A DNA stretch of 64,000 bases, taken from an uncultured Pseudomonadota bacterium (GTDB lineage: Bacteria > Myxococcota_A > UBA796 > SXON01). Below are positions 22,748 through 49,040 of this stretch, in pieces. How positions within the stretch are numbered: position 1 is the stretch's first letter; each line of letters starts with the position of its first letter. A program made the translations under genes and the position numbers. The stretch is taken from NCBI GenBank assembly GCA_903885375.1, contig CAISIK010000223.1:1443-65442 (forward strand). The letters run 5' to 3'. The notes under the pieces are model-generated. The model was not told where the DNA came from. It worked only from the letters and a program-made list of their open reading frames with translations, and made no database searches.

Positions 22748-22774
22748 CTACTGCCTGTCACACCCGGAACGGTC

Positions 22775-23580: not shown

Positions 23581-23632
23581 TCTCGCGTGGGGGGGCGCCT
23601 CCGAGCCTTCCCGTTTCCGGATAGGCCCCGGC

Positions 23633-25715: not shown

Positions 25716-25739
25716 GGCTGCCCCTTATCCGACCGGCGC

Positions 25740-31700: not shown

Positions 31701-34700
31701 CCGCCGGGCCACCACGTCGAGGATGGTGCGGGCGATCTCGGGCGTGCCCACGCGCTCCGCTTCGGCGGCCACCGAGGGCGTGGAGTTGCGCGCGGCGAGC
31801 AGCGGCGTGGTGCTCCGACGCGGGCCGGACGTGCCGAAGATGTCGGTGCTCCCCTCGGGGCGCGCGGCGATCGGGAAGCCGAGCACGAAGAGCTCGGCGA
31901 GGGCGTCGAGGAAGGAGCTGGCCCCGCCGCGCTTCGGCTGGTTGGTGTACAGCGCCCGGTGGGGGCGGTGCTTGAGGATCTGGACGACGAAGCCGGAGAG
32001 CGCGCGCTTGGGACCGCACTCCACGAAGATGCGGGCGCCGTCGGCGTACATGCGCTCGACCTGGGCGATCCACTCCACCGGAGCCGCCACCTGCAGGGCG
32101 AGGTTCTCGATGATCTGCTCGCGGGCACCGGGCCCCGTGGGGTAGTACCGGCTGTCCACGTTGGTGGTGACCCGGCGGCGCGGCTCGCGGATGTCGAGCT
32201 GCTGGAGCACGCGCTTGAGCGGCTCCGAGGCGGGCGCCACGATCCGACTGTGGAAGGCGTGGCTGACCGGCAGCGGGTACACCGTGATGCCGCGGCTCTT
32301 GAAGAGCTCGCTCGCGGCCTCCACCGCATCCGACTCGCCCGCGATCACGGTTTGTGTGGGGCAGTTCTTGTTGGCCGGCACCACGTAGCCGGGCACCTCG
32401 GCGAGCACTTCCATGACCACGTCGGTGCTGGCGGCGATTCCCGCCATCTTGCCCACGTCATCGAGCTTTACGGCGGCCATCTCCCGGCCACGCGCGCTCA
32501 CGGCCACGAGGGCCTCGCGGAAGGTCAAGATGCCGGCGGCAACGAGCGCGCCGTACTCGCCGAGGCTGTGCCCGGCCACCATGTCGGGCCGCACGCCGTA
32601 GGCGCTCATCAGGCGGAGGATGGCCACATCGACCGTGAGCGTGGCGGGCTGGGAGATCGCCGTGTCGCGGAGGCGCTCGAACTGCTCCTCTTCGCTCAGC
32701 GCGTCGTCGCGCCGGATGAGCGAGGTCAAGGACCGGCCCAGGAGCGGCGTCATCACCTCGTCGGCTTCGGCGAAGGTGGCGGCCACGACCGGGAACTGCT
32801 CCGCGAGATCGAGGCCCATGCCGATGTATTGGCTGCCCTGCCCGGTGAAGAGGAAGGCGAGCTCGCCGTCGCACGGCACGTCTTCGAGCGCGATCCCGCG
32901 CTGGCGAACAAGGTCGTAGCCCTTGCCCTTGCGGACGGCCGACACGACCTTCTCGAGCTGGCCCACCAGCTCTTCCTGGTTCTGGGCATGCGCCGACACC
33001 CGCAACGGGGCATCGCCTTCGTAGGGAGCGGCCTCGCCGCGCTCGGCAAGGGCCGTGCAGCGCTCCACCATCTCCTCGGGCGTGTCCGCCGAGAGCGCCC
33101 ACAACCCCGTCGGGACCGGCACCACGCTGGGGGCACGCTCCACCTGGTTGACCGGCGCCTGCGGCTTCCGGCCCGCCGGAGCGGCCACCGCAACGGGAGC
33201 GGCCGGCGGCGGGTTGGCGGGGGCGAGCACCGAGTGCGAGCGGGGGGGCCAGCTCGCGGCCGGCGCATCGGGGGAAGAAGCCCGCGCCATGCCGGGGCGG
33301 AAGCCCTCGAGCACCACGTGGAAATTCGTGCCGCCAAAACCGAAGGAGCTGATGCCCGCGAAGCGCGGACCGTTGCCCTCCCAGGCCTCCGTGATGGTCT
33401 GCACCTTGAGCGGCACCCGCCCGAGGTCGATGTCCGGACGCGGCTTCTTGTAGTTGATGCTCGGCGGGAAGACGCCATGGTGGAGCGCGAGGCACACCTT
33501 CAACGCACTCGCGGCGCCCGCGGCGCTCTTGAGGTGGCCGATGTTCGACTTCACCGAGCCGATGCGCGAGGGCCGGTTGCGCCGCCCGCTGCCCACGAGT
33601 TCGGAGAGCGCGTCGACTTCGACCTTGTCGCCCACGACCGTACTCGTGCCGTGACACTCGAACAGGTCCACGTCGGCCGGGTCGATCCCGGCGTTCTCGT
33701 AGGCGCGGTGCAGCGCCCGCTTCTGCCCTTCGGGATTGGGCGCAGTGATCCCCTTGCCCTTGCCGTCGGAGCTGCCGCCGAACCCGCGGAGCACGGCGTA
33801 CACACGGTCGCCATCGCGGAGCGCATCGCTGAGCCGGCGCAGCACCAGGATGCCGACGCCCTCGCCCATGACGAAGCCGTTGGCGTCGGCATCGAAGGGG
33901 CGGCTCCCGTCGGGCGACAGCGCCCCGATCTTGGAGAACTTGGCATAGGTGGCCACGCCCATCGAGCGGTCGGCGCCGCCGGTGACCGCCATGTCGAAGT
34001 CACCATCCTGCAGGCCCTTCACGGCCGCCTGCATCGCCGCCATCGAGCCCGCGCACGCCGCATCCGTCGTGAAGTTGGGGCCGCCGAGGTTGAGCGCGTT
34101 GGTGATGCGGCCGGCCACCACGTTGGCCAACTCGCCGGGCATGGAGTCTTCGGTGATGGGCGGCAGGTTCCGCTTGAGCTGTTCTTCGTAGGCCGCGAGG
34201 ATGGCGGCCCGATCGTCGGTGGGCAGGGCCGCGAACCCCTTCACCTCGGTGAGCGCCTTCCGGATGGCCGGGAACATCACGCGGATCGTGTACTCGTCCG
34301 TGATCTCGCCACCCATCGAGTTGCCGAGGATCGTGGCCACGCGGGCGCGGTCGTAGTCGCGCGATTCGCCGTAGCCGGCGTCCTCGAGCGCATCGGCCGC
34401 GGCTTCGAGCGCCATCTGCTGGATGGGGTCGACGAGGCGTGCCACCGAAGGCGGGATGCGGAAACGTTTCGGGTTGAAGACGAAGTCGGTGACGAAGCCG
34501 CCGATGCGGGCGTACGTCTTGTCGGGGACGGACTTGTCGGCATCCCAGTAGAGCGCCGGATCCCAGCGCTCGCGGGGCACCTCGATGATGCCATCGAAGC
34601 CGGCCACGAGGTTCTCCCAGAGGCGGGAGACAGACGGGCTCCGGGGGAGACGGCAGCCGAGGCCGATGACGGCGATCGGCTCGTTGCGCTCGAACGGAAC

Positions 34701-35477
34701 GTGCGCTTCGTCGACCGCCGGCGCGGGCGGCGCCGAGGCCGGAGCCGACACCTCCACGGCCCGAGGCCGCGCCCCGTAGGCGCGGACCGCCGCGCCGACG
34801 TCGGCGTGGCGGCGGTAAAGGCCGGCGGCATGAAGCGCTCCCGCGCCGATGGGCCAAGCCGAAGCGTAGGCATCGCCGCTCGTGTACACGCCCGCGGCCA
34901 CCTCCTCCACCGCTTCGCCGGCCGCCACGCGACGCCAGGCCGGGCTGGCGAGGCTCGCAACGAGGTTCTGATCGCCGAAGCGACGGAAATCGGCGGCCGA
35001 GAGCCGGGCCAGACGCCCGTGGAGGCCCTCCGCGAGCGGGAGGTGGGCGAGGAGCACATCGCTGAGGACCAGCCCCACACCGGCCGGCAGGGGCACTTCG
35101 GGGGGGTGAGGCCAGTCGACGAGCACCGCCACGCCGGCGGGCATCTCGGCAAGCAGCTCGCGAACGTCATGACGCCCAGCACGACCGCCGCTCCCGAGCC
35201 CGCGCAACATCACGCCCGCGAAGCCGGCGGGCGGGGCGCCCGCGGTGGTCCGCTCGAGCCATGTGGGGCGGCTGGGATCCGGCTTGCCTTCCTGAACCAC
35301 CAACGGCCCCGTGCCGGGCGCGTGGGTGGCGGAGCGCGCTCGTACCCAGGCGCCCGGCGGCACCTCGGCGCTGTCGGCCGTACAATCGATCAGGACCTCG
35401 AGCCCCGCGGCCGCGAACGCAGCGGCGAGCTCCGCGAAGGCGGCAGGGAGGACGACGAGGCGATTCGGCACGGCCAT
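25740..35477 (-). CDS. PfaA-like iterative type I polyketide/fatty-acid synthase: degenerate N-terminal domain-KS-AT-ACP-KS-ACP-ACP-ACP-KR-DH-PPTase
   Basis: KS1 DAACAGS/ECHGTST/NIGHLK; AT FTGQGSQ/GHSLG/HAFHS; ACPs EADLGIDTVK x4; KS2 NAACAST/SHETYTP/TGHPMGA; KR TGGTRGIT/YSAAN; DH DHAIDNVPVLPG; Sfp-type PPTase SITH/GVDME/WSVKEAVLKALG. Start ATG 35477 or GTG 35537. Confidence 0.93.
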   Translation of the reverse strand: MAVPNRLVVLPAAFAELAAAFAAAGLEVLIDCTADSAEVPPGAWVRARSATHAPGTGPLVVQEGKPDPSRPTWLERTTAGAPPAGFAGVMLRGLGSGGRAGRHDVRELLAEMPAGVAVLVDWPHPPEVPLPAGVGLVLSDVLLAHLPLAEGLHGRLARLSAADFRRFGDQNLVASLASPAWRRVAAGEAVEEVAAGVYTSGDAYASAWPIGAGALHAAGLYRRHADVGAAVRAYGARPRAVEVSAPASAPPAPAVDEAHVPFERNEPIAVIGLGCRLPRSPSVSRLWENLVAGFDGIIEVPRERWDPALYWDADKSVPDKTYARIGGFVTDFVFNPKRFRIPPSVARLVDPIQQMALEAAADALEDAGYGESRDYDRARVATILGNSMGGEITDEYTIRVMFPAIRKALTEVKGFAALPTDDRAAILAAYEEQLKRNLPPITEDSMPGELANVVAGRITNALNLGGPNFTTDAACAGSMAAMQAAVKGLQDGDFDMAVTGGADRSMGVATYAKFSKIGALSPDGSRPFDADANGFVMGEGVGILVLRRLSDALRDGDRVYAVLRGFGGSSDGKGKGITAPNPEGQKRALHRAYENAGIDPADVDLFECHGTSTVVGDKVEVDALSELVGSGRRNRPSRIGSVKSNIGHLKSAAGAASALKVCLALHHGVFPPSINYKKPRPDIDLGRVPLKVQTITEAWEGNGPRFAGISSFGFGGTNFHVVLEGFRPGMARASSPDAPAASWPPRSHSVLAPANPPPAAPVAVAAPAGRKPQAPVNQVERAPSVVPVPTGLWALSADTPEEMVERCTALAERGEAAPYEGDAPLRVSAHAQNQEELVGQLEKVVSAVRKGKGYDLVRQRGIALEDVPCDGELAFLFTGQGSQYIGMGLDLAEQFPVVAATFAEADEVMTPLLGRSLTSLIRRDDALSEEEQFERLRDTAISQPATLTVDVAILRLMSAYGVRPDMVAGHSLGEYGALVAAGILTFREALVAVSARGREMAAVKLDDVGKMAGIAASTDVVMEVLAEVPGYVVPANKNCPTQTVIAGESDAVEAASELFKSRGITVYPLPVSHAFHSRIVAPASEPLKRVLQQLDIREPRRRVTTNVDSRYYPTGPGAREQIIENLALQVAAPVEWIAQVERMYADGARIFVECGPKRALSGFVVQILKHRPHRALYTNQPKRGGASSFLDALAELFVLGFPIAARPEGSTDIFGTSGPRRSTTPLLAARNSTPSVAAEAERVGTPEIARTILDVVARRTGIAVEDLSLDHDVEADLGIDTVKMADVIGTVRETLRLDPDPDFRMGQHRTLRQLVDYAARRSGFTRPSTMPERRGTSELGALPAPVAAPTVGAPTLPADSAARFLKEIAGQDLRGVDGSTFATAMLPALQGFLGAAWTAFQAAQAPVVVAAAPPPAPVRPAAPAAAPAPAERPAPVARAEIVCSGASLGLPGGTEVFEVDGIQRMLRGENRIGSVDETNLDRFLDKKLMRLTKDPQTGEGSFLPVESRDQVIRLAGRKSHFDLIADYGVDPGLARSLDITTQLAFAAAIEALRDAGIPLVRTYRHTTTGKDVATGWALPEAFRDGTGIVFASAFPGYDQLVGKLGENGGDGEGHFDRRFLFQVLSMGHSQLAQFLGARGPNTAVNAACASTTQAIAVAEDWLRLGRCERVIVVGADDVTSENLLQWIGAGFMAAGAATTTAEVENAALPFDRRRHGMILGMGAVGLVLERGPDVRARGMVPIAELLATHLANSAFHGTRLDASHIAREVKALVDRAVAASGVSHQTFAESCVFLSHETYTPARGGSAAAEMASLPNAFGAAASKVVIANTKGFTGHPMGAGVEDTVAIKSLQYQLVPPIPNLKERDPDLGELTLSTGGHYDIRYALRLAAGFGSQLALVAWKKVANGDVRVSDAAVYGQWLARVGGAAGSTTLENRQLRFVPDPNAARAAAPAAPAAPAPAAAAPKGSVSGAEVLQRLIGVVAQKTGYSREEIDPSYELEADLGIDTVKQAEIFAEVRDAYGLERDDSFKLADYPTVEKLAGWLASRAAGAITAVDAAAPAPAAAAPAPAAASPGVDRAEVLQRLITVVAAKTGYDVGEIDPGYELEADLGIDTVKQAEIFAEVRDAYGLERDDSFKLADYPTVAKLAGWLADKAAGAAPAPAPAPVAAPVPTPTPSAVAPPASLPASAPAEAAHAGHTEVLARLIGVVAARTGYEPSEIDPNYELEADLGIDTVKQAEIFGEVRDAYALERDDSFRLADYPTVDKLAGWLAGRIAAKAGAAEPVEAPAPAVAASVAAPAAVPEAVAPAPEAAVPTLLPHQLPPDFRVRRVVRVSHVKLPVSTLRGQVVWVLGGGELGEHLRDEIRNAGGRSEGDPDVVVDCGAPLLELFAQAQRLDGRRPRQWLSILTPPADLKAARDNGARAGLCKALGREWEGCRARVVSVRANWPELDAARAIVDEMGEGDAANEVWIGPAERDVAALAVETVPTEGHWPEHPVVILTGGTRGITAQVALELARRGPCTLVLVARTLPGLLPLDEEKERPLIRQALEATNKRVTPKMIEDRLKPLRVSEEARQNVEAMIALGALVELRALDLANPDAVRLAVAELRMKHPRIDLVVHGAGVEESRLLTDKDETAFRRVFDGKAEGGLALAEGLDASTFFVSMGSIAGRFGNAGQVDYSAANEAMAQVCLARPRSLHLAWTAWAGVGMAVRGGMESLLTSRGVELLPPQAGARLLCDLVASGVCGELVVAGRLGDFQSPSIHPLLDSVELVGDRAIGRRRMSVETDPWILDHAIDNVPVLPGVMGLEMMVGAALASDPRGRFVGFEDVTFSAPLKLHRDQAADIEVTAEPDEEGAWRCTLSSSRTLKNGRTQVTRHFEARVQLVEMPLLPALPGAWFPEERVSQKDIYRRFFHGARFQVLRAAEAVTVQGLLAEAVVEHGSIAEGLISEPLVLESAFQAAGLHRIALEGVMALPASIDAVELVRSAVEGESLQVVVHVRGGGYDIDVDGPEGRIMRVRGFRMVEKGPLPPGDRLPVPEGGWPSASIAASSESEALPPGDREKMEARGTAKRRADRVAGQLAALRAVEALEPGAALAVDREPGGRPIVVGGPPRLEVSITHTDGEALALAVRGARAGVDMEAITPRPASFVEEWFSETERGWAHTDEAITVVWSVKEAVLKALGVGMALNPREIEVVGVEAGVATVRLSGEVLAAHTALGGAPIRVRVGMHAGRVVVTAVFAA
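28660..29570 (-). repeat. Three tandem near-identical ACP-encoding units separated by Ala/Pro-rich linkers
   Basis: Repeated DNA (e.g. gcctgcttcacggtgtcgatgccgag) near 28765, 29125 and 29446. Confidence 0.9.
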
Positions 35478-35605
35478 GGGGAACGCTCCGCGCGCGCCCC
35501 TATCCGCGATCGCGACAGGGAGCGAATGAGCGGCCATTCAGCCACGCTGCCGGGGGCGCGGCGTCGGCAGCGGGTTTGCGGTTAGGCCTTCCCCCGGAGG
35601 ATCCC

Positions 35606-36307
35606 ATGCTCCCAGGTCTTGTCGTCGTGCTCCTCGCCACGCCCGCCGCCGAAGCGCGCTCCAGCGAGGGTACCGGTGCCTTCGAGCTCAGCCCACGCGT
35701 GAACCGGCGCTACCAGGACGTGATCGTGACCACCGATGGCAGCCGCTGGCGGGGCCGGGTGATCGCGCGTGGGGAGCAGTACCGGATCCGGCTCGAAGAC
35801 CAGAGCGAGCTGGTGATCGCGAAGGAGGACATCGTGTCGGTCACCCGGGAGCTCAACCCGGCGCTGGTGCACAACGGCCAGTGGGCCTTTCGTGCCACAC
35901 CGGGCTTCGAAGCGGCCTTCGTCATCGCCGACGAGGGCGGCGGCCCGCAATACGGAGGCCTCCTCGAGGTGGCGGTGGCCCACAACTGGGGCGGCAGCTT
36001 CGAGCCCGAGCTCACCATCACCCTCTCCCCGATCGGTCCGAAGGACAGCCTCACGGTGGAGGCCGGAGTTGGCATCCGGTACTACCTCCAGCCCGACAGC
36101 AAGACGAAGGCGTACACGAACACCCAACTCATCCTCTACGGCAACCGCGGCGACCTCGGGCTCCGCACCGGTCCTGGCTTCATGTGGGACATCAGCCCGG
36201 GCTTCGGGATTGGCACGAACCAGGGCGTCACCCTGCTCATCCAGGACAACCCCGCCGCGGTGGCCGTCGGCTACCACGCGGGATTGACCGTGCAAGGGCG
36301 ATTCTGA
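35606..36307 (+). CDS. Hypothetical outer-membrane beta-barrel protein with small N-terminal domain
   Basis: GGAGG RBS, signal peptide, alternating amphipathic strands, C-terminal Phe (GLTVQGRF). Confidence 0.7.
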   Translation: MLPGLVVVLLATPAAEARSSEGTGAFELSPRVNRRYQDVIVTTDGSRWRGRVIARGEQYRIRLEDQSELVIAKEDIVSVTRELNPALVHNGQWAFRATPGFEAAFVIADEGGGPQYGGLLEVAVAHNWGGSFEPELTITLSPIGPKDSLTVEAGVGIRYYLQPDSKTKAYTNTQLILYGNRGDLGLRTGPGFMWDISPGFGIGTNQGVTLLIQDNPAAVAVGYHAGLTVQGRF

Positions 36308-36326
36308 TAGGGTCCCCATGTAGAAG

Positions 36327-37370
36327 ATGTCGCACCCCTCCCGCATCCTGGTCGTTGACGACGAGCCCCTGAACCTGCAGGTGTTCGAATACAACTTCGC
36401 GGAGGAGTTCCCGCTGCTGTACGCGTCCGGAGCCGAGGAGGCGCTGGCGCTCCTGGAGGCCCACCCGGTCGCGGTGATCATCGCCGACCACCGGATGCCC
36501 GGGATGCTCGGGCTCGATCTGCTCGCCCTCGTCGCGCGGCGTTTTCCCGCGGTCGTGCGGATGCTCCTCACCGCCCACACCGACGTTCCGCTCCTGCTCG
36601 ATGCGGTCAATCGAGGTGACCTCTTCCGGTACGTGCCCAAGCCCTGGGAGCCCGACGGGATGCGCCAGGACATGCAGCTCGCCCTGTCGCGGCACGGCGA
36701 GGAAATCCAACGGCAGCGCCTCCTCCGCCACGCCGCCGAGCACGTGCACACCACCGGCGCGCTCACGGCCTCGTTGGCGAACTCGCTCGGCGAGGTCGAT
36801 GCGCTCCTCACCGAGGCCGCCAAGGGCGGCGAAGGCGCCGCCAACGCGGCGCTCGTGCGGGCCGCCCTGCGCGTGCGGACCCTGCACGAAGGCGCCCTCC
36901 GGGAGTCCCGGCGGCAGGCGAAGCCGCAGCGCGAGTCGGTGACCGAGCTCGTGAGCGAGGCCGTGAACGCCGTCGGGCTGTGGAATGCCGAGAGCGGCGT
37001 GGCCCTGGAGCTGATCGACGAGGCAAGCGCCGCACAGGTGATGGTGCCCGCCATGCGGCTGGTGGAGGCAGTCACCGCGCTGCTGCGAAACGCCACCGAG
37101 GCCGCCTCGGCCGGCCCCGCCCCCCGCTCGGTGCAGGTGCGGGTGGTCCGCGCGGCGTCCGATCGCGTTCGCATCGTGGTATCCGACTCCGGCGGAGGCT
37201 TTTCGCCAGAGGGTCGCCCGGAGCTCTTCGGCTCCACGCGTGGCCGCGCGGGCTTCGGCCTCGCCATCGCCGGGGCCCTCGCCAACGGTGCAGGCGGCCA
37301 GCTCGACCTTTCTGGAGCGCAGAGCGGGCGGGTAGCCCTCACGCTTCCGCTCGCGCCGCCGGGTCGCTGA
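36327..37370 (+). CDS. Response regulator receiver + degenerate histidine-kinase (HATPase) protein
   Basis: ILVVDDE, IIADHRMP, LTAH, VPKPW; N box LLRNATEA, DSGGG, GFGLAIA; H-box region GALTASLANSL has no His. Confidence 0.85.
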   Translation: MSHPSRILVVDDEPLNLQVFEYNFAEEFPLLYASGAEEALALLEAHPVAVIIADHRMPGMLGLDLLALVARRFPAVVRMLLTAHTDVPLLLDAVNRGDLFRYVPKPWEPDGMRQDMQLALSRHGEEIQRQRLLRHAAEHVHTTGALTASLANSLGEVDALLTEAAKGGEGAANAALVRAALRVRTLHEGALRESRRQAKPQRESVTELVSEAVNAVGLWNAESGVALELIDEASAAQVMVPAMRLVEAVTALLRNATEAASAGPAPRSVQVRVVRAASDRVRIVVSDSGGGFSPEGRPELFGSTRGRAGFGLAIAGALANGAGGQLDLSGAQSGRVALTLPLAPPGR

Positions 37371-40171
37371 TGCAGGGGTTCCCGAAGCGCACCAACCCCC
37401 GGCGGCGCACCATCCTTCGGCTGGAAGCAGGCCGGCATGATCGTGAGCGCGTGCTGAACCTCTCCGCGAACGGCATGTTCGTGGCGGGAGCGAAGGTTGC
37501 CGATGCGGCGCGCGGAGCCCTGTTCATTCCCGGCGAGGACCGTCCCCTCGAGCTGAAGTTTCGTTCGGTCTTCCAGCGGGCCGATGGGCTCGGCGTGCAG
37601 TTCGACACCGAAGACCGCCGCACCCGCAACGAGCTCCTCGCCTACGTCACCTTCCAGCACGAGCAAGCGCGACTCCAGGCCATCGAGACCCGACTGCACG
37701 GCCGGCCGATGAACCTCAAGCCGTTGAACGAAGCGGAGGGCACCCGCGTGGCGCTCCGCCCGATGGAGCGCACGGGCCGCGCGGTGGAGGTGTATCGACG
37801 CATCGACGGCTCGCCGATCCGCGCCTCCCTCACCGCGGTAGACCAGGCCAACGCCCGCCTCTCGATGCTGCTCGACCAGAGCAGCGAGTCCGCCGACGAG
37901 TTCGACCAGGTCTTCCTCGTCCTCCGCCAGGGCGACGTGTCCTTCCTCGCCGACACCGTCGTGGAGACCGCCCGGGGCCGCGTGGCCTCGCTGATGCTCC
38001 CCGAGCGCATCTTCTTCCCCGAACGCCGGATGCTGGAGCGGGAAGCGAGCGGCACCGGGGTGATGCGGGTGGAGATCGACGGCCGAACGCGGGTGATGGG
38101 CGTGCTGCAGTCCGACCCGAACGGCTTCTCGGTCCAGGTCTGGGCGGTCGACGCCGATGCCTTCACGGCCGGGCGCGAGATCACCGGCTGCATCCTGCAG
38201 GAAGGCGACCGAAGCGGGCCGGTGGGTCCCGTGATCGTGGCTTGGCGCGCGGATGCGCCCCAGGAAGGGCGACTGCGCCTGGGGTTGCGGCGGGTCCAGG
38301 CACGCGTGTCGGTACCGCAGCAACGGCTGGCGTTTTCCGAACAGTCCACGACCCTCTTCCAGCGCGCCTGGGGAGGCGTGCAGCACGTGGTGGGCGGGTG
38401 GCTCGCCCGCACCGGCGTCGTGGCGGGTCCGGGCCTGCCGCAGGTCTGGGAAGTTCCCGACGAGGCAGGGCGCCCGGTGGTGGCCCTCGTCAACGCCACG
38501 TTCGACCTGGCGCATCCGCCCGAGGGCAACCTCAACGTCGTGCTGGTCCCTCCGCCCTTCGCGCGCCGCAAGGAGACCCTCGGCCCCGTCGCCCTCTCGC
38601 TCGTGGAGACCTTCCGCGCCGCCGGCGAGCACGCGGTGATCGTGCGGTGGGATGGCATCAACCATCTCGGTGAGAGCTGGAAGGACGAGGCGAGCCGGCA
38701 GCCCGGCCGGGAACTCATCCATTGGACCCTGGGGCAGACCGTTCGGGACCTCGCCAACGTGCACCAACGGGTTCGGGAACGCTTCGCCGGTCGCACGCTC
38801 CGGACCGCGATCGTGTCGTTCTCCATGTCGGCCGTGGCGGCCCGCCGCTACCTTTCCGGGGGCGTGCCGGACGTCCACTACTGGCTCGCGCCCATGGGCG
38901 CGCCCGACCCGCGCGACATCATCCGGAACTCCAGCGGTGGCGTCGACTGGGTCGGCATGCGCAAACGGGGCGCGCAGCTCGGCGTGAACCCCATCCAGGG
39001 GCACCTGCTCGACTGCGACCGGGGTTGCGACGAGATGCTGGGGAGCCGGATCGCCGAGCTGGAGGATGCGCGGCGGGAGATGGCCCTCATCAGCCAGCCG
39101 GTCACCTGGTTCTGCGGCCAGCACGACTACTGGGTGAATCCGCTGCGCGTGGAGGACATCCTCGGGGTACCGGCGCCCGGCACCCGGGAGCTCATCCGCG
39201 TGCCCACCGGCCACTTCGTCCGCCAGAGCGGCGAGGCCATGGAGACCTTCCGCCTCCTTGCGAGCAAGGTGGCCGGCACCTTGCTCGGCCGCCCCGTGAC
39301 CGCCGTCCTCCCCGCCTCGCACGCCTTCACCCGTGCGGCAGAATGGGAGCGGGGGCGGCGCCAGACCGAAGCGTTCGACGACCAGCGGTACTGGAGCGAC
39401 TACCTGCGCGGCACCACCCGCAATCCCCTCGGTTTCGACGTGCTCGCCCTCACGGACGAGTACGAGGAGCTGATGAACGAGCAGGTGGACCAGCTCGGCA
39501 TCCAGTCCGGCGAGCGCGTGCTCGACGCCGGCTGCGGAACCGGAAACGCGCTCGCGGCCATCGTCCGCCGCTGGGGGCACGGGGCGCCCGGCATCCAGAT
39601 CGACGCCATCGACTTCGTGCCCCACGCGCTCGAAACCGCGCGCGCAAAAGCTGCGTCCGCGGCTGCCGAGGTTGGACTCCCGACGTTGGAGGCGCGCTTC
39701 CACGTTTGCGACCTCCGCCTCCCGGCCGACAACTCCGTCCTGCCTTTCGGCGACTCCGCGTTCGACGTGGTGCTCGTCAGCCTCGTCCTCCCCTACCTGC
39801 CAGAGCCGGCGGCGCTCCTGCGCGAGCTCAATCGTGTGCTGCGCCCGGGCGGGCGCCTGGTGGCCAGCACCCTCCGGCCGGATTGCGACATGAGCGGGCC
39901 GCTCAAGCGCCTCAAGGAGAAGATCGAACGCGGCGACGATCAGGTGAAAGAAGGCTGGCGGGCGCGCCAGCTGCTGGTGGCCGTGCAGGACTACGTGAAC
40001 GCGGCAGCCGGGCTCGTGGAGCAAGAGGCCGACGGCCGGTTCCAGTTCTATGAACGCGAGGCGTTCGAGGGCCTCCTCCGCAGCGCCGGCTTCCGCACCG
40101 AGTCCACGCAAGCCACCTTCGGCACCCCGCCCCAGGGTCTGGTGACCCTCGCACGAAAGCCGAATGGATAG
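37370..40171 (+). CDS. Multidomain PilZ / LuxD-like acyl-thioesterase (alpha/beta hydrolase) / class I SAM methyltransferase fusion
   Basis: PilZ RTNPRR...NLSANG; hydrolase PFARRKE, RWDGINHLGES, SFSMSA, GQHDYWV, TGH; MTase VLDAGCGTG, LPFGDSAFD, RVLRPGG; TGATG coupling. Confidence 0.82.
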   Translation: MQGFPKRTNPRRRTILRLEAGRHDRERVLNLSANGMFVAGAKVADAARGALFIPGEDRPLELKFRSVFQRADGLGVQFDTEDRRTRNELLAYVTFQHEQARLQAIETRLHGRPMNLKPLNEAEGTRVALRPMERTGRAVEVYRRIDGSPIRASLTAVDQANARLSMLLDQSSESADEFDQVFLVLRQGDVSFLADTVVETARGRVASLMLPERIFFPERRMLEREASGTGVMRVEIDGRTRVMGVLQSDPNGFSVQVWAVDADAFTAGREITGCILQEGDRSGPVGPVIVAWRADAPQEGRLRLGLRRVQARVSVPQQRLAFSEQSTTLFQRAWGGVQHVVGGWLARTGVVAGPGLPQVWEVPDEAGRPVVALVNATFDLAHPPEGNLNVVLVPPPFARRKETLGPVALSLVETFRAAGEHAVIVRWDGINHLGESWKDEASRQPGRELIHWTLGQTVRDLANVHQRVRERFAGRTLRTAIVSFSMSAVAARRYLSGGVPDVHYWLAPMGAPDPRDIIRNSSGGVDWVGMRKRGAQLGVNPIQGHLLDCDRGCDEMLGSRIAELEDARREMALISQPVTWFCGQHDYWVNPLRVEDILGVPAPGTRELIRVPTGHFVRQSGEAMETFRLLASKVAGTLLGRPVTAVLPASHAFTRAAEWERGRRQTEAFDDQRYWSDYLRGTTRNPLGFDVLALTDEYEELMNEQVDQLGIQSGERVLDAGCGTGNALAAIVRRWGHGAPGIQIDAIDFVPHALETARAKAASAAAEVGLPTLEARFHVCDLRLPADNSVLPFGDSAFDVVLVSLVLPYLPEPAALLRELNRVLRPGGRLVASTLRPDCDMSGPLKRLKEKIERGDDQVKEGWRARQLLVAVQDYVNAAAGLVEQEADGRFQFYEREAFEGLLRSAGFRTESTQATFGTPPQGLVTLARKPNG

Positions 40172-42794
40172 CGGGGTAAATCCTCGTAGAATATGGGCAT
40201 TCGAGGCGGATTTGCGCGCACGCACGGTGCGCGGCATGCGCCTGGCGGCGGGGGTGGGCGCCACCTTCGTGCCCATGTTCTACTTCCTCGACCGGCTGAT
40301 CGTTCCAGAGCTGGCCGACCAGTTCTTGCGCTGGCGGCTCCTGGCCTCGCTCATCTGCACGGGCTGCATCCTGTCGAGCTACACGGAGGCCGGGCGCCGC
40401 CACATCGTCCCCGTCTCCTACGTGGCCTGCCTTTCGGTGAGCCTGTCGATCGCGGCGATGGTCACCAGCATCGCGCCCGGGGAGTCCACCTACTACGCCG
40501 GGCTGAACCTCTGCCTCCTCTCCACGGCGGTGCTCTTCCCGTGGGCGCCGCGCCACACCGCAGCGATCGGCGTGATCGTGGTGGCATCCTTCGTCGTTCC
40601 GGCGCTGGTCTCGCCGCCGGACAGCCTCGGCATCTTCGCGAACAACCTGTTCTTCCTCGTGGCAACCGCCGCGATCGGGGGTCTTTCCTCCCTCGCGGCG
40701 TTCAACGAGCACCGCCGCCGGTTCGACCTCTCGTGGTCCCTCGAGCTCCGTTCTGCGGATCTGGCCGGCGCCAACGAACGACTGCGTCAGGTCGACGAGC
40801 TCAAGAGTCGGTTCTTCGCCAACGTCTCCCATGAGCTCCGCACGCCGCTGACCCTCGCGATCTCGCCGGTGGAGGCGCTCCTGACCACCCCCGGCCTCCC
40901 GCCGACGGTGACGGCCACGATGCGTTCGTTGCACATCGATCTGCTCGCGCTGCGTCGTCGCATCGAGGACCTCATCGACCTCGCCCGGCTGGACAGCGGT
41001 CGCCTGCGCCTGCCCGACCGTCCCGTCGCCTTCGCGCGGATCGTGGCCGATGTGCTCGACGCCGCGCGCCCCTTCGCCGAGCGTGTCGGCGTCGCGCTCC
41101 GCGCCGAGGTGCAGCCGGACCTGCCGGTGGTCATCGGCGATGCCGGCGTGCTCGAGCAGGTGGTCTTCAACCTCCTCTCCAACGCGCTCAAGTTCACGCC
41201 GGCCGGCGGCGAGGTCACGGTGTCGCTGCACGCCCTCCTCGGCTCCGCCGTGCTCCGCGTGTCGGACACCGGAAAGGGCATCTCCGCGGCCGACCAGGCC
41301 GAACTCTTCACCCGCTTCGGGAGCACCACCTCCAGCACCGCCGCGCGAGGAAGCGGCCTGGGACTCGCGCTGGTGAAGGAATTCGTGGAGCTGCACGGCG
41401 GAACGGTGGAAGTCCGCTCCTCCGAAGGCCTGGGCACGACCTTCGAGGTGCACCTCCCCCTGGCCCCCGACGGAACCACGGAATCGGGCATCGACGGCGG
41501 CTCGAACGTGGGCGCGATGGACTTCGAGAGCGAGCTCACCCTCCGCGACGACGACATCCTCGTGCAGCCGCACGACGACGACCGCTCCCTCGTGCTCGTG
41601 GTCGACGACAACCCCCGACTCCGCAAGCTCGTGGCCACCACGCTCGCCGAGGAGTTCCGCGTGGCCGAAGCGCGCGACGGCGCCGACGCGCTGGCCCGCA
41701 TCCGCCAGTCCATGCCCGCGGTCGTGGTGGCCGACGTGATGATGCCGGTCATGGGCGGGCGCGAGCTGCTCGCGACCATGCGGAACGACCCCCGCCTCCG
41801 CCACATCCCCGTGCTCCTGCTCACGGCGCACGCCGACGCCGACGTGCGCGACGAGGCGCTGGAGACCGGCGCGTCGGACTTCCTCAGCAAGCCCTTCTCC
41901 ACCCGGGAGCTCCTCGCGCGCGTGCGGAACTTCGTGTCCCTGCGCAGCGCCCAGCTCGCGCTCGCCTCCACCAACGACGCCCTCGCCCTCGCCCTCGACC
42001 AGACCCGCACGGCGCAGGCCCGGGCGGTCCGCGCGGAGAAGCTCGCCGCCATCGGCCAGCTCGCCTCGGGCATCGCGCACGAGGTGAAGAACCCCATCAA
42101 CTACATGCTCAACTTCGCGCGGCCGGCCCGCGGCAAGCTGGACCGCGCCCAGTCCGGGCAGCTCCCCGCGGATGCGGTGGCGCGGGAATTGGCCAGCGTG
42201 GGGGAGGCGCTGGGGCGGGTGGTGGAGGGCGGCGAACGCATCCTGCGCATCGTGAACGGCCTGCAGGCCTTTGCCCGAGGTGGCCAGGCCCGCGTGCCCG
42301 TCGCGGTAGACGCGGAGGTGGCCGCCGCGCTGCGCCTCACCGAAGGGACGGCCCCCCCGGGCGTGCAGATCACCTCCAACCTCCAGAGCGAGGGGACGGT
42401 GCTCGGCAGCCCCGTGAGCATCGGCGCGGTCACCCTGAACCTCGTCTCCAACGCCCTCCGCGCGCTCTCCCCCGGCGGCACCGTCCGGGTCTCCACGACC
42501 AGCGACGAAGAGTCGGTCTGCCTCGTGGTGGAGGACGACGGGCACGGCATTCCCCCCGAGTACCTCGACCGGATATGGCACCCCTTCTTCACCACGAGGG
42601 GCGCCGGCGAGGGCCTCGGGCTGGGGCTCGCGCTGGTGCTCCGCATCGTCAACGAGGACATGGGCGGGCGCATCCAGGTGCGCAGCGAGCCCGGGGAGGG
42701 CACCCGCTTCGAGGTGACGATTCCCCGGAACTCGTCCCGGCGGGACGACAGCACCTGGACCGATCTCGCCCGCGGGATCACCGCGCCGAGCTGA
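40164..42794 (+). CDS. Membrane hybrid sensor kinase: ~6TM-HisKA-HATPase-REC-HisKA-HATPase
   Basis: TM sensor with YYAGLNL; SHELRTPL, NLLSNALKFT, GSGLGL; REC VDD/ADVMMP/KPF; second AHEVKNP, NLVSNA, PFFTT, GLGLGL. Start could be later (ATG near 40236). Confidence 0.93.
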   Translation: MDSGVNPRRIWAFEADLRARTVRGMRLAAGVGATFVPMFYFLDRLIVPELADQFLRWRLLASLICTGCILSSYTEAGRRHIVPVSYVACLSVSLSIAAMVTSIAPGESTYYAGLNLCLLSTAVLFPWAPRHTAAIGVIVVASFVVPALVSPPDSLGIFANNLFFLVATAAIGGLSSLAAFNEHRRRFDLSWSLELRSADLAGANERLRQVDELKSRFFANVSHELRTPLTLAISPVEALLTTPGLPPTVTATMRSLHIDLLALRRRIEDLIDLARLDSGRLRLPDRPVAFARIVADVLDAARPFAERVGVALRAEVQPDLPVVIGDAGVLEQVVFNLLSNALKFTPAGGEVTVSLHALLGSAVLRVSDTGKGISAADQAELFTRFGSTTSSTAARGSGLGLALVKEFVELHGGTVEVRSSEGLGTTFEVHLPLAPDGTTESGIDGGSNVGAMDFESELTLRDDDILVQPHDDDRSLVLVVDDNPRLRKLVATTLAEEFRVAEARDGADALARIRQSMPAVVVADVMMPVMGGRELLATMRNDPRLRHIPVLLLTAHADADVRDEALETGASDFLSKPFSTRELLARVRNFVSLRSAQLALASTNDALALALDQTRTAQARAVRAEKLAAIGQLASGIAHEVKNPINYMLNFARPARGKLDRAQSGQLPADAVARELASVGEALGRVVEGGERILRIVNGLQAFARGGQARVPVAVDAEVAAALRLTEGTAPPGVQITSNLQSEGTVLGSPVSIGAVTLNLVSNALRALSPGGTVRVSTTSDEESVCLVVEDDGHGIPPEYLDRIWHPFFTTRGAGEGLGLGLALVLRIVNEDMGGRIQVRSEPGEGTRFEVTIPRNSSRRDDSTWTDLARGITAPS

Positions 42795-42800
42795 TCCGCC

Positions 42801-43922
42801 TCAGGATGGGTAGACGGGCGGCCACGCCGCGCCGGGGCGGGCGAGGTGGAAGCCCTGCAGCAGGTTCGCCCCGCAGCGCACGGCCGTGGAGGCCTCTTCT
42901 TCCGATTCCACACCCTCCGCCACCAGCTCGCTGCCCGTGGCCGAAGCGAAGTTGGCGAGGAGCTGGAGCAGGCGCTGCTTGCGCGGCTCCCGATGGGCGT
43001 TCCGCACGATGCTCATGTCGGCCTTGATGAAGGCGGGGCTGAGCTCCGCGAGCACGGACAGGCTGTTGTAGCCGCTGCCGATGTCATCCACCGCGATGCG
43101 GAACCCGCGGCGCCCGAGCTCCCCGAGCGCCTCCTCGGCGCCGTGGTAGTCGGAGAGCGGCGCGCGCTCGGTGATCTCCAGCACCGTGCGGGCGGCGAAG
43201 GGCTCAAGGCAGGCGAAGGCCTCCAAGGCGCGCGGCCCGGCGAACTGGGCAGGATGGGTGTTCACGAAAACGTCGACCGACGCCGGCACCCTCTGCATCC
43301 ACCCGGCCGCGAGCTGGTTCACCACGCGGCCGAGGTCGGCCTCCCGGCCGCTGCGCTCCACGGAGTCGAGGACGCGGAGGGGATCAGACAGGGTGGGGTG
43401 GGTGGAGCGGAGCAGCAGCTCGACCGCAGCGAGACCGCGGGTGCGCGCCGTGAACATCGGCTGGATCGCGAGCGAAAACATCCCGCCGTCCACGCACTGC
43501 TGGAACATCGACGAGTGGAACTCCACGTCGTGCGTGCGGCGGATGGCCCGGCGCACGAGCGCACCGGCCTCCTGGAGCGCCCGCAGCTCCCGCTCGAATT
43601 GCTCCGTCTGGAAGGGGCGCCGAAGCACCCGCTGGGCGATGACCGCGCCGGCCCCCAGGTCGCTGCCGGAGCTGGTGAGCAGGAGCCGCATGGTTTCGGG
43701 GTGGTGCTCGCGCGAGTGCGTCAGCAACCCGGTGCTCGCCTCTTCGCCGAGCTCGTCGGACACGACCAGCACGTCGACCCGACGTGCGCTGAGACCGCCG
43801 AGGGCCTCCTCCGCCGTGCCCACCACCTCCACGGTGTTTCCCGTGTCGGTGAGGAGACGGAAAAGGGTACGCCGCAACCCTTCATTTGTATCGGCGAGGA
43901 GGATGTGGGCGGGGGCTTCCAA
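42801..43922 (-). CDS. Degenerate REC + EAL domain c-di-GMP phosphodiesterase
   Basis: IQP, ELLLR, FVN, LEITER, VDDIGSGYNS, IKAD, VAEGVE, LQGF; REC phosphoacceptor region reads VLVVSDE; TTG start. Confidence 0.88.
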   Translation of the reverse strand: MEAPAHILLADTNEGLRRTLFRLLTDTGNTVEVVGTAEEALGGLSARRVDVLVVSDELGEEASTGLLTHSREHHPETMRLLLTSSGSDLGAGAVIAQRVLRRPFQTEQFERELRALQEAGALVRRAIRRTHDVEFHSSMFQQCVDGGMFSLAIQPMFTARTRGLAAVELLLRSTHPTLSDPLRVLDSVERSGREADLGRVVNQLAAGWMQRVPASVDVFVNTHPAQFAGPRALEAFACLEPFAARTVLEITERAPLSDYHGAEEALGELGRRGFRIAVDDIGSGYNSLSVLAELSPAFIKADMSIVRNAHREPRKQRLLQLLANFASATGSELVAEGVESEEEASTAVRCGANLLQGFHLARPGAAWPPVYPS

Positions 43923-43984: not shown

Positions 43985-45193
43985 ATGCACATCCTCATCG
44001 CCGACAAATTGGCCCCGTTCGTCGCGGGCCGCGCACAGGACCTCGGCGGCGTGGTCACCGTGGAGGGGGGCCTCAAGGATGCGGCGCTCACGGCGCGCAT
44101 CGCCGAGCTCGACCCCGAAGTGCTCATCGTGCGCAGCACGAAGGTGACCGCGGCCGACATGGCGGCGGGGCGCTCGCTCTCCCTCGTGATCCGCGCTGGC
44201 GCGGGCGTGAACACGATCGACCTCGCGGCGGCCTCCCAGCGCGGTGTGTACGTGGCCAACTGCCCCGGCAAGAACGCCATCGCGGTGGCCGAGCTGGCCA
44301 TCGGGCTGATGATCAGCTGCGACCGGCGGATTCCCGACAACGTCGCGGCGCTGCGGGCCCACCGGTGGGACAAGAAGACCTTCGGCACCGCGCGCGGTCT
44401 TAACGGTCGCACGGTGGCCGTGCTCGGGGTCGGCACCATCGGCAAGGAGTTCATCGTCCGCGCGCAGGCCATGGGCATGCGGGTGGTGGCCTGGAGTCGG
44501 GGCCTCACCGCGGATGCGGCGGCGCGCCTCGGCGTGGCGCGCGCGGAGAGCCCGGAGGCCGCCGTGGTGGGCGCCGACGTGGTGAGCGTGCACCTCGCGC
44601 TCGCCTCCGAAACGCGCGCGCGCATCGGCGAGAGCGTGTTTTCCGCGATGAAGCCCGGCGCGATCTTCCTGAACACCGCCCGTGGCGAAGTCGTGGACTA
44701 CGCCGCGCTCCAGCGCGCGATCAGCGAGCGCCAGCTCCGCGTGGGGCTCGACGTCTTCCCCGACGAGCCCTCCGCCGCGCAGGCCGAATTCGCCCACCCG
44801 CTGGTGGACAACCCCGCGGTGTACGGCACCCACCACATCGGCGCGAGCACCGACGAGTCGGAAGAGGCCGTGGGCGAGGAGTGCCTCCGCATCATCACCG
44901 CCTACCGCGACGGCGCCCCGATCCCCAACTGCGTGAACCTCGCCACCCGCACCCCCGCCACCCACCTGCTCGTGGTCCGCCACGCCGACCGCGTGGGTGT
45001 CCTCGCACACGTGCTCGGCGTGCTCCGTGAGGGCGGCGTGAACGTGGAGGACATGCAGAACATCGTGTTCTCCGGCGGCCTCGCCGCCTGCGCCCGCATC
45101 GCCACCAAGGGCGAGGTCTCGCCCGCCCTCCTGGAGCGCATCCAGGCCAATCCCAACATCTTCGCGGCTTCGGCCGTGGCCCTCTCGGAGTAG
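43985..45193 (+). CDS. serA: D-3-phosphoglycerate dehydrogenase with C-terminal ACT domain
   Basis: RAGAGVNTID, NAIAVAE, GVGTIG, NTARG, DVF..EP, HIGAST.E; ACT domain; adjacent to serC; AGGAG RBS. Confidence 0.88.
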   Translation: MHILIADKLAPFVAGRAQDLGGVVTVEGGLKDAALTARIAELDPEVLIVRSTKVTAADMAAGRSLSLVIRAGAGVNTIDLAAASQRGVYVANCPGKNAIAVAELAIGLMISCDRRIPDNVAALRAHRWDKKTFGTARGLNGRTVAVLGVGTIGKEFIVRAQAMGMRVVAWSRGLTADAAARLGVARAESPEAAVVGADVVSVHLALASETRARIGESVFSAMKPGAIFLNTARGEVVDYAALQRAISERQLRVGLDVFPDEPSAAQAEFAHPLVDNPAVYGTHHIGASTDESEEAVGEECLRIITAYRDGAPIPNCVNLATRTPATHLLVVRHADRVGVLAHVLGVLREGGVNVEDMQNIVFSGGLAACARIATKGEVSPALLERIQANPNIFAASAVALSE

Positions 45194-45195
45194 TC

Positions 45196-46278
45196 ATGGC
45201 CCGTCTGCACAACTTCTCGGCCGGCCCGGCCGTCCTGCCCCTCTCCGTCGTGGAGGCCCTCCGCGACAACCTGCTCGACCTCAACGGCTCGGGCGTGGGC
45301 CTCATGGAGATCAGCCACCGCAGCAAGACCTTCCAGGCGGTGGTCGACAGCGCGGAGGCCCGCGTTCGCCGCGTGCTGAACGTGCCGGCCGACTACAAGG
45401 TGCTGTTCCTCCAGGGCGGCGCCTCCCTCCAGTTCTACATGAGCGCCCTGAACCTGCTCCGCCCCGGCGAGGCCGCCGACTTTCTCGTGACCGGCGTGTG
45501 GTCGCAGAAGGCCATCAAGGAAGCCAAGCGTATCGGCGATGCCCGCGCCATCTGGGACGACGCGCCCAACAACTTCACCCGCGTGCCCCAGAACGGCGAG
45601 TACACCGTTCGCGACGAGGCGGTGTACCTGCACTACACCTCGAACAACACCATCTACGGCACCGAATTCCACCACCAGCCCGACTCGGCCGGCAAGCCGT
45701 TGGTGGCCGACCTGAGCTCCGACATCGCCGGCGTGCCGGCGAACGTGAGCGAGCACGCGATGATCTACGCGGGCGCCCAGAAGAACCTCGGCCCCAGCGG
45801 CCTCACCCTCGTGCTGCTCTCCCCGTGGGCCATGTCGCGCATTCCGAGCGGGCTCCCCGCCATGCTCGACTACGCGGTGCACGCCAAGGATGGGTCGATG
45901 TACAACACGCCCAACTGTGTCGGCATCTACGTGCTCGACCAGGTGCTCGGCTGGATGGAGGACAACGGCGGCATGCCGGCCATGATCGCGCGCAACCGCA
46001 AAAAGGCCGACACGCTCTACGCCGAGCTCGACCGCACCGGCTTCTGGCGCCCGCACGCGCGGCCCGACAGCCGCAGCGTGATGAACGTCACCTGGCGCCT
46101 GCCCTCCGAGGAGCTCGAGAACGCCTTCGTGAAAGAAGCGAAAGCGGCCACGCTCGATGGCCTCAAGGGCCATCGCTCCGTGGGCGGCATCCGCGCCAGC
46201 CTCTACAACGCGCTCGGGCAGGAATCGGTCGATGCGCTGGTGTCCTTCATGACTGATTTCGAGCGTCGAAACGGCTGA
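45196..46278 (+). CDS. serC: Phosphoserine aminotransferase
   Basis: NFSAGPA.LP, EISHRS, FLQGGA, NNTIYG, YAGAQKNLGPSG, MYNTP, GHRSVGG.RAS.YNA. Confidence 0.97.
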   Translation: MARLHNFSAGPAVLPLSVVEALRDNLLDLNGSGVGLMEISHRSKTFQAVVDSAEARVRRVLNVPADYKVLFLQGGASLQFYMSALNLLRPGEAADFLVTGVWSQKAIKEAKRIGDARAIWDDAPNNFTRVPQNGEYTVRDEAVYLHYTSNNTIYGTEFHHQPDSAGKPLVADLSSDIAGVPANVSEHAMIYAGAQKNLGPSGLTLVLLSPWAMSRIPSGLPAMLDYAVHAKDGSMYNTPNCVGIYVLDQVLGWMEDNGGMPAMIARNRKKADTLYAELDRTGFWRPHARPDSRSVMNVTWRLPSEELENAFVKEAKAATLDGLKGHRSVGGIRASLYNALGQESVDALVSFMTDFERRNG

Positions 46279-48960: not shown

Positions 48961-49040
48961 GACCACCTCCGGAACGGCCCACAGGATACCTTGCTCGCTC
49001 GCGCCGCGCCCCTCGATTTTGCAGCGCCTGGAGCCCCCGA

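Follow-up and report, generated by a model that had tools for sequence, protein, structure and literature searches.

A candidate lipid methyl-ester signalling cassette with a PhcS-type sensor kinase and a PilZ-bearing synthase in an uncultured bacterium of the Myxococcota_A

Introduction

What does a membrane sensor kinase perceive when its gene is translationally coupled to that of an enzyme combining PilZ, LuxD-like hydrolase and methyltransferase domains? This question is raised by a locus in a 64,000-nucleotide stretch of DNA (the window; positions 1,443 to 65,442 of contig CAISIK010000223.1, assembly GCA_903885375.1) from an uncultured bacterium of the GTDB lineage Myxococcota_A; UBA796; SXON01. 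A candidate synthase of 933 aa (37370-40171, +) is followed here by a hybrid sensor kinase of 876 aa (40164-42794, +), and the cassette also comprises genes for a small barrel protein, a REC-HATPase protein and a REC-EAL protein. The first-pass annotation, made from the sequence alone, had read these genes as an analogue of the phcB-phcS-phcR quorum-sensing genes of Ralstonia with a built-in cyclic di-GMP (c-di-GMP) loop. In the Phc system, a 3-hydroxy fatty-acid methyl ester activates the sensor, and output passes through the LysR-type regulator PhcA.

According to two sources (PMC6989110, PMC9102662), PhcB is an S-adenosylmethionine (SAM) methyltransferase that makes the methyl ester of 3-hydroxypalmitic acid (3-OH PAME) or 3-hydroxymyristic acid methyl ester (3-OH MAME), PhcS is a membrane sensor kinase, PhcR joins a receiver to a kinase domain, and PhcQ is another receiver. 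The analysis established the domain make-up and folds of the window proteins, showed sensor and relay to be homologous to those of a phcBSRQ-type operon and demonstrated that the gene linkage is conserved. The reading that we favour, and to which we give somewhat better than an even chance, is that of a Phc-type lipid methyl-ester signalling cassette, in which a c-di-GMP-gated synthase would release and methylate an acyl chain and the sensor would feed back through a phosphodiesterase.

Sensor kinase

The hybrid kinase contains two HisKA, two HATPase_c and one REC domain (Pfam), with phospho-sites at H223 in the first kinase, D524 in the receiver and H639 in the second kinase. Its N-terminal region is a PhcS-type six-helix membrane domain (S108-x-Y110-Y-A-G-L; 40164-40733, +). 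Six hydrophobic segments were found at residues 24-180 by the Kyte-Doolittle method, joined by loops of at most 12 residues, which agrees with the six transmembrane helices and the lack of a large periplasmic domain in the first-pass annotation. Against the MASE8 family (PF20968), the window kinase scored 18.6-18.7 bits versus a cut-off of 26.2, over profile positions 2-150 of 154, and MASE8 was matched by 9/23 kinase family members at E ≤ 0.1 (best E 2.5e-6).

A profile of this membrane domain was run against 401 evenly sampled Burkholderiales genomes. Matches over the full profile length were obtained in 29 of the 401, with E down to 4.7e-27, and the matched sensor genes were open frames of about 440-490 aa. 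In seven of the eight sensor loci examined, the gene stood in a conserved four-gene operon encoding, in turn, a protein of 462 aa whose C-terminal part is a methyltransferase, a membrane kinase (453 aa), a REC-HisKA-HATPase protein (370 aa) and a REC protein (329 aa), as in the published layout phcB-phcS-phcR-phcQ (PMC6989110, PMC9102662). Residue R22 was invariant in the first protein of these operons; a phcB R22C mutation is reported, and the residue described as conserved in Ralstonia, Cupriavidus and Paraburkholderia, in PMC6989110. From the architecture and the invariant R22, we infer that the four-gene operons are phcBSRQ.

Comparison of the two groups with hhalign aligned the membrane domains of the window family and of the Burkholderiales sensors over 206 columns (probability 99.3 %, E 1.1e-20), and an S-x-Y-Y-x-G-L motif was common to both. 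The YYAGL segment that had been singled out in the first-pass annotation belongs to a signature common to window-type and PhcS-like sensors. Judged by this profile comparison, which that annotation had proposed, the sensor membrane domain is homologous to that of PhcS-like kinases in phcBSRQ-type operons.

The relationship extended beyond the membrane domain. In tblastn searches with the proteins of one Burkholderiales operon (L170), residues 8-451 of the 453-aa PhcS-like protein aligned with window positions 40176-41474 (E 3.7e-27), and residues 8-369 of the 370-aa PhcR-like protein aligned with positions 41592-42743 (E 8.4e-21). Because the PhcS-like protein aligns with the first half and the PhcR-like protein with the second, the double hybrid kinase reads as a PhcS-PhcR fusion.

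Candidate synthase

The synthase begins with a PilZ domain (37370-37669, +), followed by a YcgR-like PilZN and PilZ pair (about 37724-38359, +), a LuxD-like alpha/beta-hydrolase thioesterase domain (S485, D586, H615; about 38387-39319, +) and a class I SAM methyltransferase (Pfam, residues 700-913; SAM motif D719-x-G-x-G; about 39467-40108, +). The order PilZ, LuxD, methyltransferase had been correctly named from the sequence; the YcgR-like pair is an addition to it.

The N-terminal PilZ domain scored 25.8 bits against a Pfam cut-off of 22.5 when residues 1-117 were scanned alone, and 20.9 bits within the whole protein. It has the c-di-GMP motifs R13xxxR17 and N30xS32xxG35, and R11, R12, R13, N30, S32 and G35 were invariant across 18 full-length synthase relatives (43-86 % identity). 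A profile of residues 1-690, built from 22 family members, was searched against PDB sequences. The PilZ domain 8u0i was matched by residues 5-83 (E 6.9e-8), and the two-domain PilZ receptors PP4397, 3kyf and YcgR were matched at residues 119-299 (E 5.6e-5 to 0.003). In the second PilZ domain, R220xxxR224 was kept in 22/22 sequences, and the second motif in most of the distant relatives was [D/E]-x-S-x-x-G. Like YcgR/PP4397-type receptors, BcsA and Alg44, all of which were among the profile matches, the synthase has a PilZ domain with RxxxR and D/NxSxxG motifs joined to an enzyme or effector. Unlike the cellulose synthase BcsA, Alg44 and YcgR, its output would be a lipid signal and not a polysaccharide or an action on the flagellar motor. 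As far as these motifs go, the synthase appears to be switched by c-di-GMP through its PilZ modules.

The LuxD assignment was supported by fold. In an AlphaFold2 (AF2) model of residues 1-690 (mean pLDDT 83.6), a Foldseek search against the PDB gave ranks 1 and 2 to both chains of 1THT (E 1.4e-14 and 2.5e-13; target TM 0.80 and 0.79), with 16 % sequence identity in the fold alignment; 1THT is LuxD, a myristoyl-ACP thioesterase/acyltransferase of Vibrio harveyi. The profile search against PDB sequences matched alpha/beta hydrolases at residues 384-611, including LuxD (1tht, E 0.0012). D586 and H615 were invariant in 22 sequences, at least 90 % of which also have S485, giving Ser-Asp-His in the usual order. 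The window domain thus resembles LuxD in fold, catalytic order and profile match; it differs in being fused to PilZ and methyltransferase domains outside any lux operon, and, unlike the LuxD family, it stays under every Pfam threshold for Acyl_transf_2. The LuxD domain of the first-pass annotation is borne out by its top fold match and not by Pfam.

The hydrolase fold also admits another explanation, quorum quenching, in which the hydrolase would act as a methyl-esterase and the cassette would serve to break down or recycle a methyl-ester signal from outside. Alpha/beta hydrolases can be esterases, and feruloyl esterases, cinnamoyl esterases and monoacylglycerol lipase were among the fold matches. 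An esterase fused to a methyltransferase, however, would run a futile cycle, the top fold match is an acyl-ACP thioesterase and no esterase, and the synthase has no signal peptide and begins with cytoplasmic PilZ domains. We consider quenching very improbable, and prefer release of an acyl chain followed by its methylation.

The synthase was then compared with PhcB. With hhalign, the synthase family and the PhcB-like family aligned over 123 columns of the SAM-binding core only (E 1e-8), and the PilZ-hydrolase part gave no alignment with the PhcB-like profile (probability 0.12 %). When residues 353-933 were searched in the 401 Burkholderiales genomes, all of the listed matches started at query residue 288 of 581 or later; none reached the hydrolase, and they covered the linker and methyltransferase only. 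Word-index searches, in which the index needs shared 5-mers, gave no named PhcB among the synthase relatives in the matches listed (120 of 192 in one search), which is weak evidence. An approach to PhcB through the methyltransferase was rejected: five Burkholderiales loci with 460-480-aa frames proved to encode shorter methyltransferases, about 300 aa long, and an adjacent kinase was absent. Since the profile comparison aligns the methyltransferase core alone, the synthase is, by this comparison, an analogue and not a relative of PhcB outside that core.

Taken as a whole, the cassette is like phcBSRQ in having a methyltransferase gene directly before a co-oriented sensor kinase gene, a homologous six-helix membrane domain with the S-x-Y-Y-x-G-L motif, and a protein with a receiver and a kinase-like module in the operon. 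It is unlike phcBSRQ in five respects: the synthase brings a LuxD-like thioesterase and two PilZ modules of its own; the PhcS and PhcR equivalents are fused in one 876-aa protein; a separate REC-kinase-like protein that has lost the canonical histidine is encoded upstream; the cassette includes genes for a REC-EAL protein, a predicted phosphodiesterase, and for a predicted outer-membrane barrel; and the host is an uncultured, high-GC bacterium, probably myxobacterium-like. The proposed analogy with phcB-phcS-phcR was therefore too weak for the sensor and relay, which are homologous and not just analogous, and holds as mere analogy for the synthase.

Conserved linkage and sister-genome cassettes

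A word-index search retrieved 22 synthase relatives, and an exhaustive search with the profile of residues 1-690 retrieved 340 cluster representatives at E ≤ 1e-30. The best 150 of these 340 PilZ-hydrolase matches had E ≤ 1.9e-112 and were 511-1200 aa long; 37 of the best 150 (about 812-950 aa) lack the first PilZ domain, as they begin at profile position 111-123. A fusion of Acyl_transf_2 and methyltransferase without PilZ also exists, as a family of about 565 aa.

Within the class to which the window belongs, the synthase was found in 29 of 182 genomes. We analysed neighbourhoods in 20-kb loci from 20 of these 29 genomes and in three further loci, including one of Nannocystis bainbridge, by tblastn with the window proteins. 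The results showed that a full-length hybrid-kinase homologue, membrane domain included, lay directly downstream of the synthase in 21/23 loci. In one of the other loci (L129) the kinase homologue was about 4 kb upstream of the synthase, and in L128 (synthase at 9667-11808, -) no sensor gene was found within 20 kb; this sole synthase homologue without a nearby sensor gene has Gly at the position of the nucleophile serine, which is unique among the homologues. A REC-HATPase gene was found upstream of the synthase in 10/23 loci.

At the level of genomes, 28 of the 29 synthase-positive genomes were also sensor-positive, the exception (G087) being a genome in which the synthase match lies where a 3.3-kb contig ends. 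In the window's genus, synthase and sensor were both present in seven genomes (G108, G109, G111, G113, G115, G117, G118) and both absent from four (G110, G112, G114, G116); genomes of one genus are kin and do not count as independent observations of co-occurrence. The first-pass annotation had let its proposal hang on the co-occurrence of synthase and sensor. The two were found adjacent in nearly all loci and present or absent together in the genus, and this condition for refutation did not hold.

We also sampled 10 sensor loci of the class that lack the synthase. One of them (L186; 2394-10914, -) encodes, in order, a REC-HATPase protein, a 515-aa protein with PilZ and a PhcB-like methyltransferase, a homologous double kinase (32-33 % identity to the window kinase over the full length) and a PAS-GGDEF-EAL protein. 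Its PilZ domain scored 24.4 bits against a cut-off of 22.5. In L181 (2700-7922, -), a receiver, a PhcB-like methyltransferase without PilZ match and a homologous kinase were found, and L183 had a PhcB-like match at most 1.5 kb from the sensor match. Compared with the Burkholderiales protein, the PhcB-like methyltransferases of L186 and L181 were 26-28 % identical (E about 1e-30); neither has a hydrolase domain. Six other loci of the sample, leaving aside L182, which is described below, gave no methyltransferase match with the queries used.

The window cassette is thus like that of L186 in the order REC-HATPase, synthase, double kinase and in the N-terminal PilZ domain of both synthases, and unlike it and L181 in the enzyme, which in these two loci is PhcB-like and without a hydrolase domain. 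Because a LuxD-type or a PhcB-like enzyme occupies the same slot, the operon frame accepts two unrelated synthase designs. The PhcB-like proteins of the Burkholderiales (L169-L175) had no Pfam match in their N-terminal ~280 aa; as the L186 homologue starts with PilZ, the PhcB N-terminus, the site of R22, may be a degenerate PilZ domain.

Relay proteins and c-di-GMP enzymes

Upstream of the synthase, the 347-aa protein (36327-37370, +) contains REC and HATPase_c domains and no HisKA (Pfam). Its receiver is complete (D54, T82, K105), and its HATPase retains the N, G1 and G2 ATP-binding motifs (N255, D287xG289, G309xG311). The H-box histidine is replaced by Asn152 and was absent in 7/7 genus proteins (N, A, G or F at this position), whereas A-H-[DE] was present in 3/4 distant REC-HATPase homologues and in the window's own second kinase. 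The pseudokinase that the first-pass annotation had seen here agrees with this loss of the canonical histidine beside intact ATP-binding motifs. A second histidine, H141, lies 11 residues before the H-box position; it is common to 7/7 genus proteins and absent in the distant homologues, and could be a shifted phospho-acceptor or meaningless. In tblastn comparisons with the L170 proteins, the 347-aa protein matched the PhcR-like protein (E 7.9e-18) and, with the receiver, the PhcQ-like protein (E 4.4e-21). By these matches it is a PhcR/PhcQ-like receiver fused to a kinase-like module; unlike it, the Burkholderiales PhcR-like proteins have the canonical histidine.

The REC-EAL protein (373 aa; 42801-43922, -; Pfam) matched EAL with E 5.3e-41 and REC weakly, at 22.4 bits versus a cut-off of 30.2. 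Its receiver is atypical, with D56 present and Arg instead of the conserved Lys. The EAL catalytic residues are complete (E168, R172, N221, E249, E252, D279, D280, K300, E336, Q356), and all of these except R172 were recorded as invariant in the REC-EAL alignment, suggesting that the protein is an active c-di-GMP phosphodiesterase. The gene was convergent with the kinase gene in the window, L112, L113, L114 and L116, and was absent at L115, where the flank is 2 kb.

Outside the genus, a PAS-GGDEF-EAL gene stood beside the synthase-sensor pair in 10/16 loci, nine of them confirmed by Pfam and one (L122) by tblastn only. It lay directly after the kinase gene in nine loci; in L117 a REC-PAS-GGDEF-EAL gene was found upstream of the synthase. 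In Nannocystis bainbridge (L002, 13228-15936), the sensor kinase ends in an HD-GYP-type HD_5 domain and not in a second kinase, and on its domain assignment this kinase fuses signal perception directly to c-di-GMP hydrolysis. Together, a c-di-GMP-metabolising domain was present in or beside the cassette in 16/24 loci, the window included. The proposed c-di-GMP loop accordingly gains support from context, with conserved PilZ motifs in the synthase and a c-di-GMP enzyme adjacent or fused in these loci.

Barrel protein and polyketide synthase

The first gene of the cassette (35606-36307, +) encodes a 233-aa protein with a signal-peptide-like N-terminus, a small beta domain, a predicted 8-stranded barrel and the C-terminus ...GRF. 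It had no Pfam and no NCBIfam match. Its AF2 model (pLDDT 75.3) gave fifteen Foldseek matches at E ≤ 0.001, including OmpA-TM, NspA, Ail, OprG, OmpW, OmpX and AlkL; the predicted structure is in keeping with the earlier claim of an outer-membrane barrel. The barrel gene was present in 6/6 genus loci reaching that position. OmpW/AlkL-type barrels pass hydrophobic molecules.

Divergent from the cassette and 68 bp away lies a gene for a 3265-aa polyketide synthase (PKS; 25740-35537, -; Pfam, translation), which is type I PKS-like or polyunsaturated fatty acid (PUFA) synthase-like. It comprises ketosynthase (KS), acyltransferase (AT) and acyl carrier protein (ACP) domains, a second KS-like region, tandem ACPs, ketoreductase (KR), dehydratase (DH) and a C-terminal phosphopantetheinyl transferase (PPTase). 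Thioesterase and enoyl reductase domains were absent from it (Pfam), and its N-terminal ~280 aa had no Pfam match. The PKS gene was found at the same position in four of the six genus loci with sufficient flank (L001, L111, L112, L113). Given that the PKS has no thioesterase, the LuxD-like domain could be its release enzyme in this genus, and the PKS is a possible supplier of acyl chains to the synthase. To the left of the PKS, three minus-strand open reading frames (ORFs; 23980-25371, 22748-23956 and 21716-22711) had no Pfam match.

Proposed circuit and alternative explanations

For the substrate, product, ligand, phosphotransfer partners, c-di-GMP binding and sign of the feedback, we infer the following scheme. 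The LuxD-like domain would free a fatty or polyketide acyl chain from an ACP, either that of fatty acid synthesis or that of the neighbouring thioesterase-less PKS, and the fused SAM methyltransferase would esterify the released carboxylate to a membrane-permeant lipid methyl ester. The two N-terminal PilZ modules would place this synthesis under c-di-GMP dependence, and the small barrel protein may aid passage of the lipid over the outer membrane. Within the membrane, the hybrid kinase would read the product through its PhcS-type six-helix domain. Phosphate would then run through the receiver and the second kinase module of this kinase, the two of which represent the fused PhcR, and onward to the REC-kinase-like protein that lacks the canonical histidine and to the REC-EAL phosphodiesterase. 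The phosphodiesterase would alter c-di-GMP and so feed back on the synthase. Whether the whole forms a self-contained autoinducer circuit with a reciprocal c-di-GMP link, in which PilZ gates synthesis of a lipid methyl ester, here possibly derived from a polyketide, and PhcS-type perception resets c-di-GMP through a dedicated phosphodiesterase, is a more tentative matter, and we think the chances lean against it.

Several findings weigh against the signalling interpretation. With regard to the chemistry of the synthase, residues 338-677 of the window protein had no Pfam match even at E ≤ 10, so that LuxD/Acyl_transf_2 went unrecognised there, and a precomputed PF02273 match was found in just 3/22 synthase relatives. 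The second PilZ domain in this genus departs from D/NxSxxG (Q247-x-D249-x-x-G252). Because only a generic methyltransferase core is common to both enzymes, the product chemistry is not transferable from PhcB. The best family matches of the methyltransferase were DVU_1556, CpaM and MenG/UbiE, none of them carboxyl methyltransferases, and the best PDB match was MitM. In favour of the proposed chemistry, the weaker matches did include a carboxyl methyltransferase, BioC (1e-10), and Mtf2, a fatty-acid O-methyltransferase (1e-5).

These methyltransferase matches bear on a further explanation, in which hydrolase and methyltransferase use different substrates and no fatty-acid methyl ester is made. 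The hydrolase might, for example, carry out LuxD-type acyl transfer to another acceptor, and the methyltransferase might act on a quinone, a protein or the head group of a phospholipid; a phosphatidylethanolamine N-methyltransferase (8ys9, E 1.7e-8) was also among its PDB matches. On the other side, the two domains were fused in every member seen, the best 150 of the 340 library matches are mostly long enough for the predicted C-terminal methyltransferase, and the fusion also occurs in the PilZ-free family of about 565 aa. A fusion kept so consistently speaks for two successive reactions of the same substrate, and we give separate substrates little credence in comparison with release and methylation of the same chain.

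With regard to the context of the cassette, the phcBSRQ label of the Burkholderiales reference operons is drawn from architecture and R22 only. Of the 182 genomes in the class, 74 have the sensor domain and 29 the synthase, which means that the sensor domain is not specific to this synthase. One sampled sensor locus without the synthase (L182; 546-7994, +) encodes a REC-HATPase protein, a second HATPase protein, a homologous double kinase and a REC-PAS-GGDEF-EAL protein, that is, kinases and GGDEF-EAL with no methyltransferase, and may be a 'listener-only' variant of the cassette. REC-EAL was absent beside the two closest relatives of the window (L001 and L111, about 6 kb of flank each), and 8/24 loci were without any c-di-GMP enzyme. 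Neither L114 and L116 nor any of the distant loci has the PKS, which lies outside the wider conserved core of the cassette.

The strongest competitor draws on some of the same observations. On this view the synthase, regulated by c-di-GMP, would release and tailor an end product other than an autoinducer: a lipid or polyketide, for instance a methyl ester that is a volatile or an antibiotic, or else a lipid of the membrane or envelope; the kinase would sense membrane state or another cue and merely regulate the pathway. The thioesterase-less PKS adjoining the cassette in the window and most genus loci, the outer-membrane barrel gene within the operon and the far wider occurrence of the sensor domain than of the synthase all fit this explanation, as does the description of MASE-type membrane domains as promiscuous sensor modules in a preprint (bioRxiv 10.1101/2021.11.05.467447). 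Yet synthase and sensor are translationally coupled and stay adjacent in the 21 loci mentioned, including all of those without the PKS. Moreover, sensor and relay are homologous to an operon type known for methyl-ester quorum sensing, and in both lineages the methyltransferase gene directly precedes the sensor gene. We therefore regard the tailoring explanation as unlikely, though it deserves more weight than the other alternatives, and retain signalling by a lipid methyl ester as our interpretation.

In the literature searched, no Phc-type system outside the Burkholderiales (Ralstonia and close relatives) and no PilZ-thioesterase-methyltransferase synthase was described in the papers listed, and no paper combined PhcB and LuxD. 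One sensor frame takes at least two unrelated synthase designs. If the signalling interpretation is correct, lipid methyl-ester signalling would be widespread in uncultured freshwater and soil bacteria, to judge from the 340 PilZ-hydrolase clusters. Bacteria switch between motile and sessile life mainly through c-di-GMP, and cell-density sensing would here be coupled to lifestyle control at the level of an enzyme. If the more tentative reciprocal circuit exists, the synthase would be the first quorum-sensing synthase directly controlled by a second messenger, and Phc-type signalling, known so far from Burkholderiales only, would be ancient and widespread, with interchangeable synthases. As the synthase is a single soluble polypeptide, its assay is predicted to be simple.

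Gene layout and flanking genes

The gene boundaries and coordinates given in the first-pass annotation were all recovered. The junction of the REC-HATPase and synthase genes is TGATG, with the synthase ATG at 37370 having one base in common with the upstream TGA; the start of the hybrid kinase gene overlaps the synthase stop by 8 nt; and the stops of the hybrid kinase and REC-EAL genes converge with 6 bases between them (42795-42800). The cassette is single-copy, with one synthase match and one sensor match in the genome (6.0 Mb, 224 contigs). Lake and freshwater metagenomes from several studies contained near-identical DNA, with no RNA run among the 22 listed.

The GC content of the window is ~70 %, and long shadow ORFs are plentiful as a consequence. 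A 3624-aa ORF (24711-35585, +) and other long overlapping ORFs were rejected as GC-rich shadow frames of the PKS and cassette genes.

After the cassette, 43985-46278 (+) is occupied by genes for an ACT-domain-containing, SerA-like D-3-phosphoglycerate dehydrogenase and a class V aminotransferase. The SerA-like dehydrogenase gene itself (43985-45193, +) was syntenic in L112, L113 and L114. Further on, a 726-aa protein (46786-48966, -) combines HYDIN/VesB-like Ig, MopE-type metal-binding and FG-GAP repeats.

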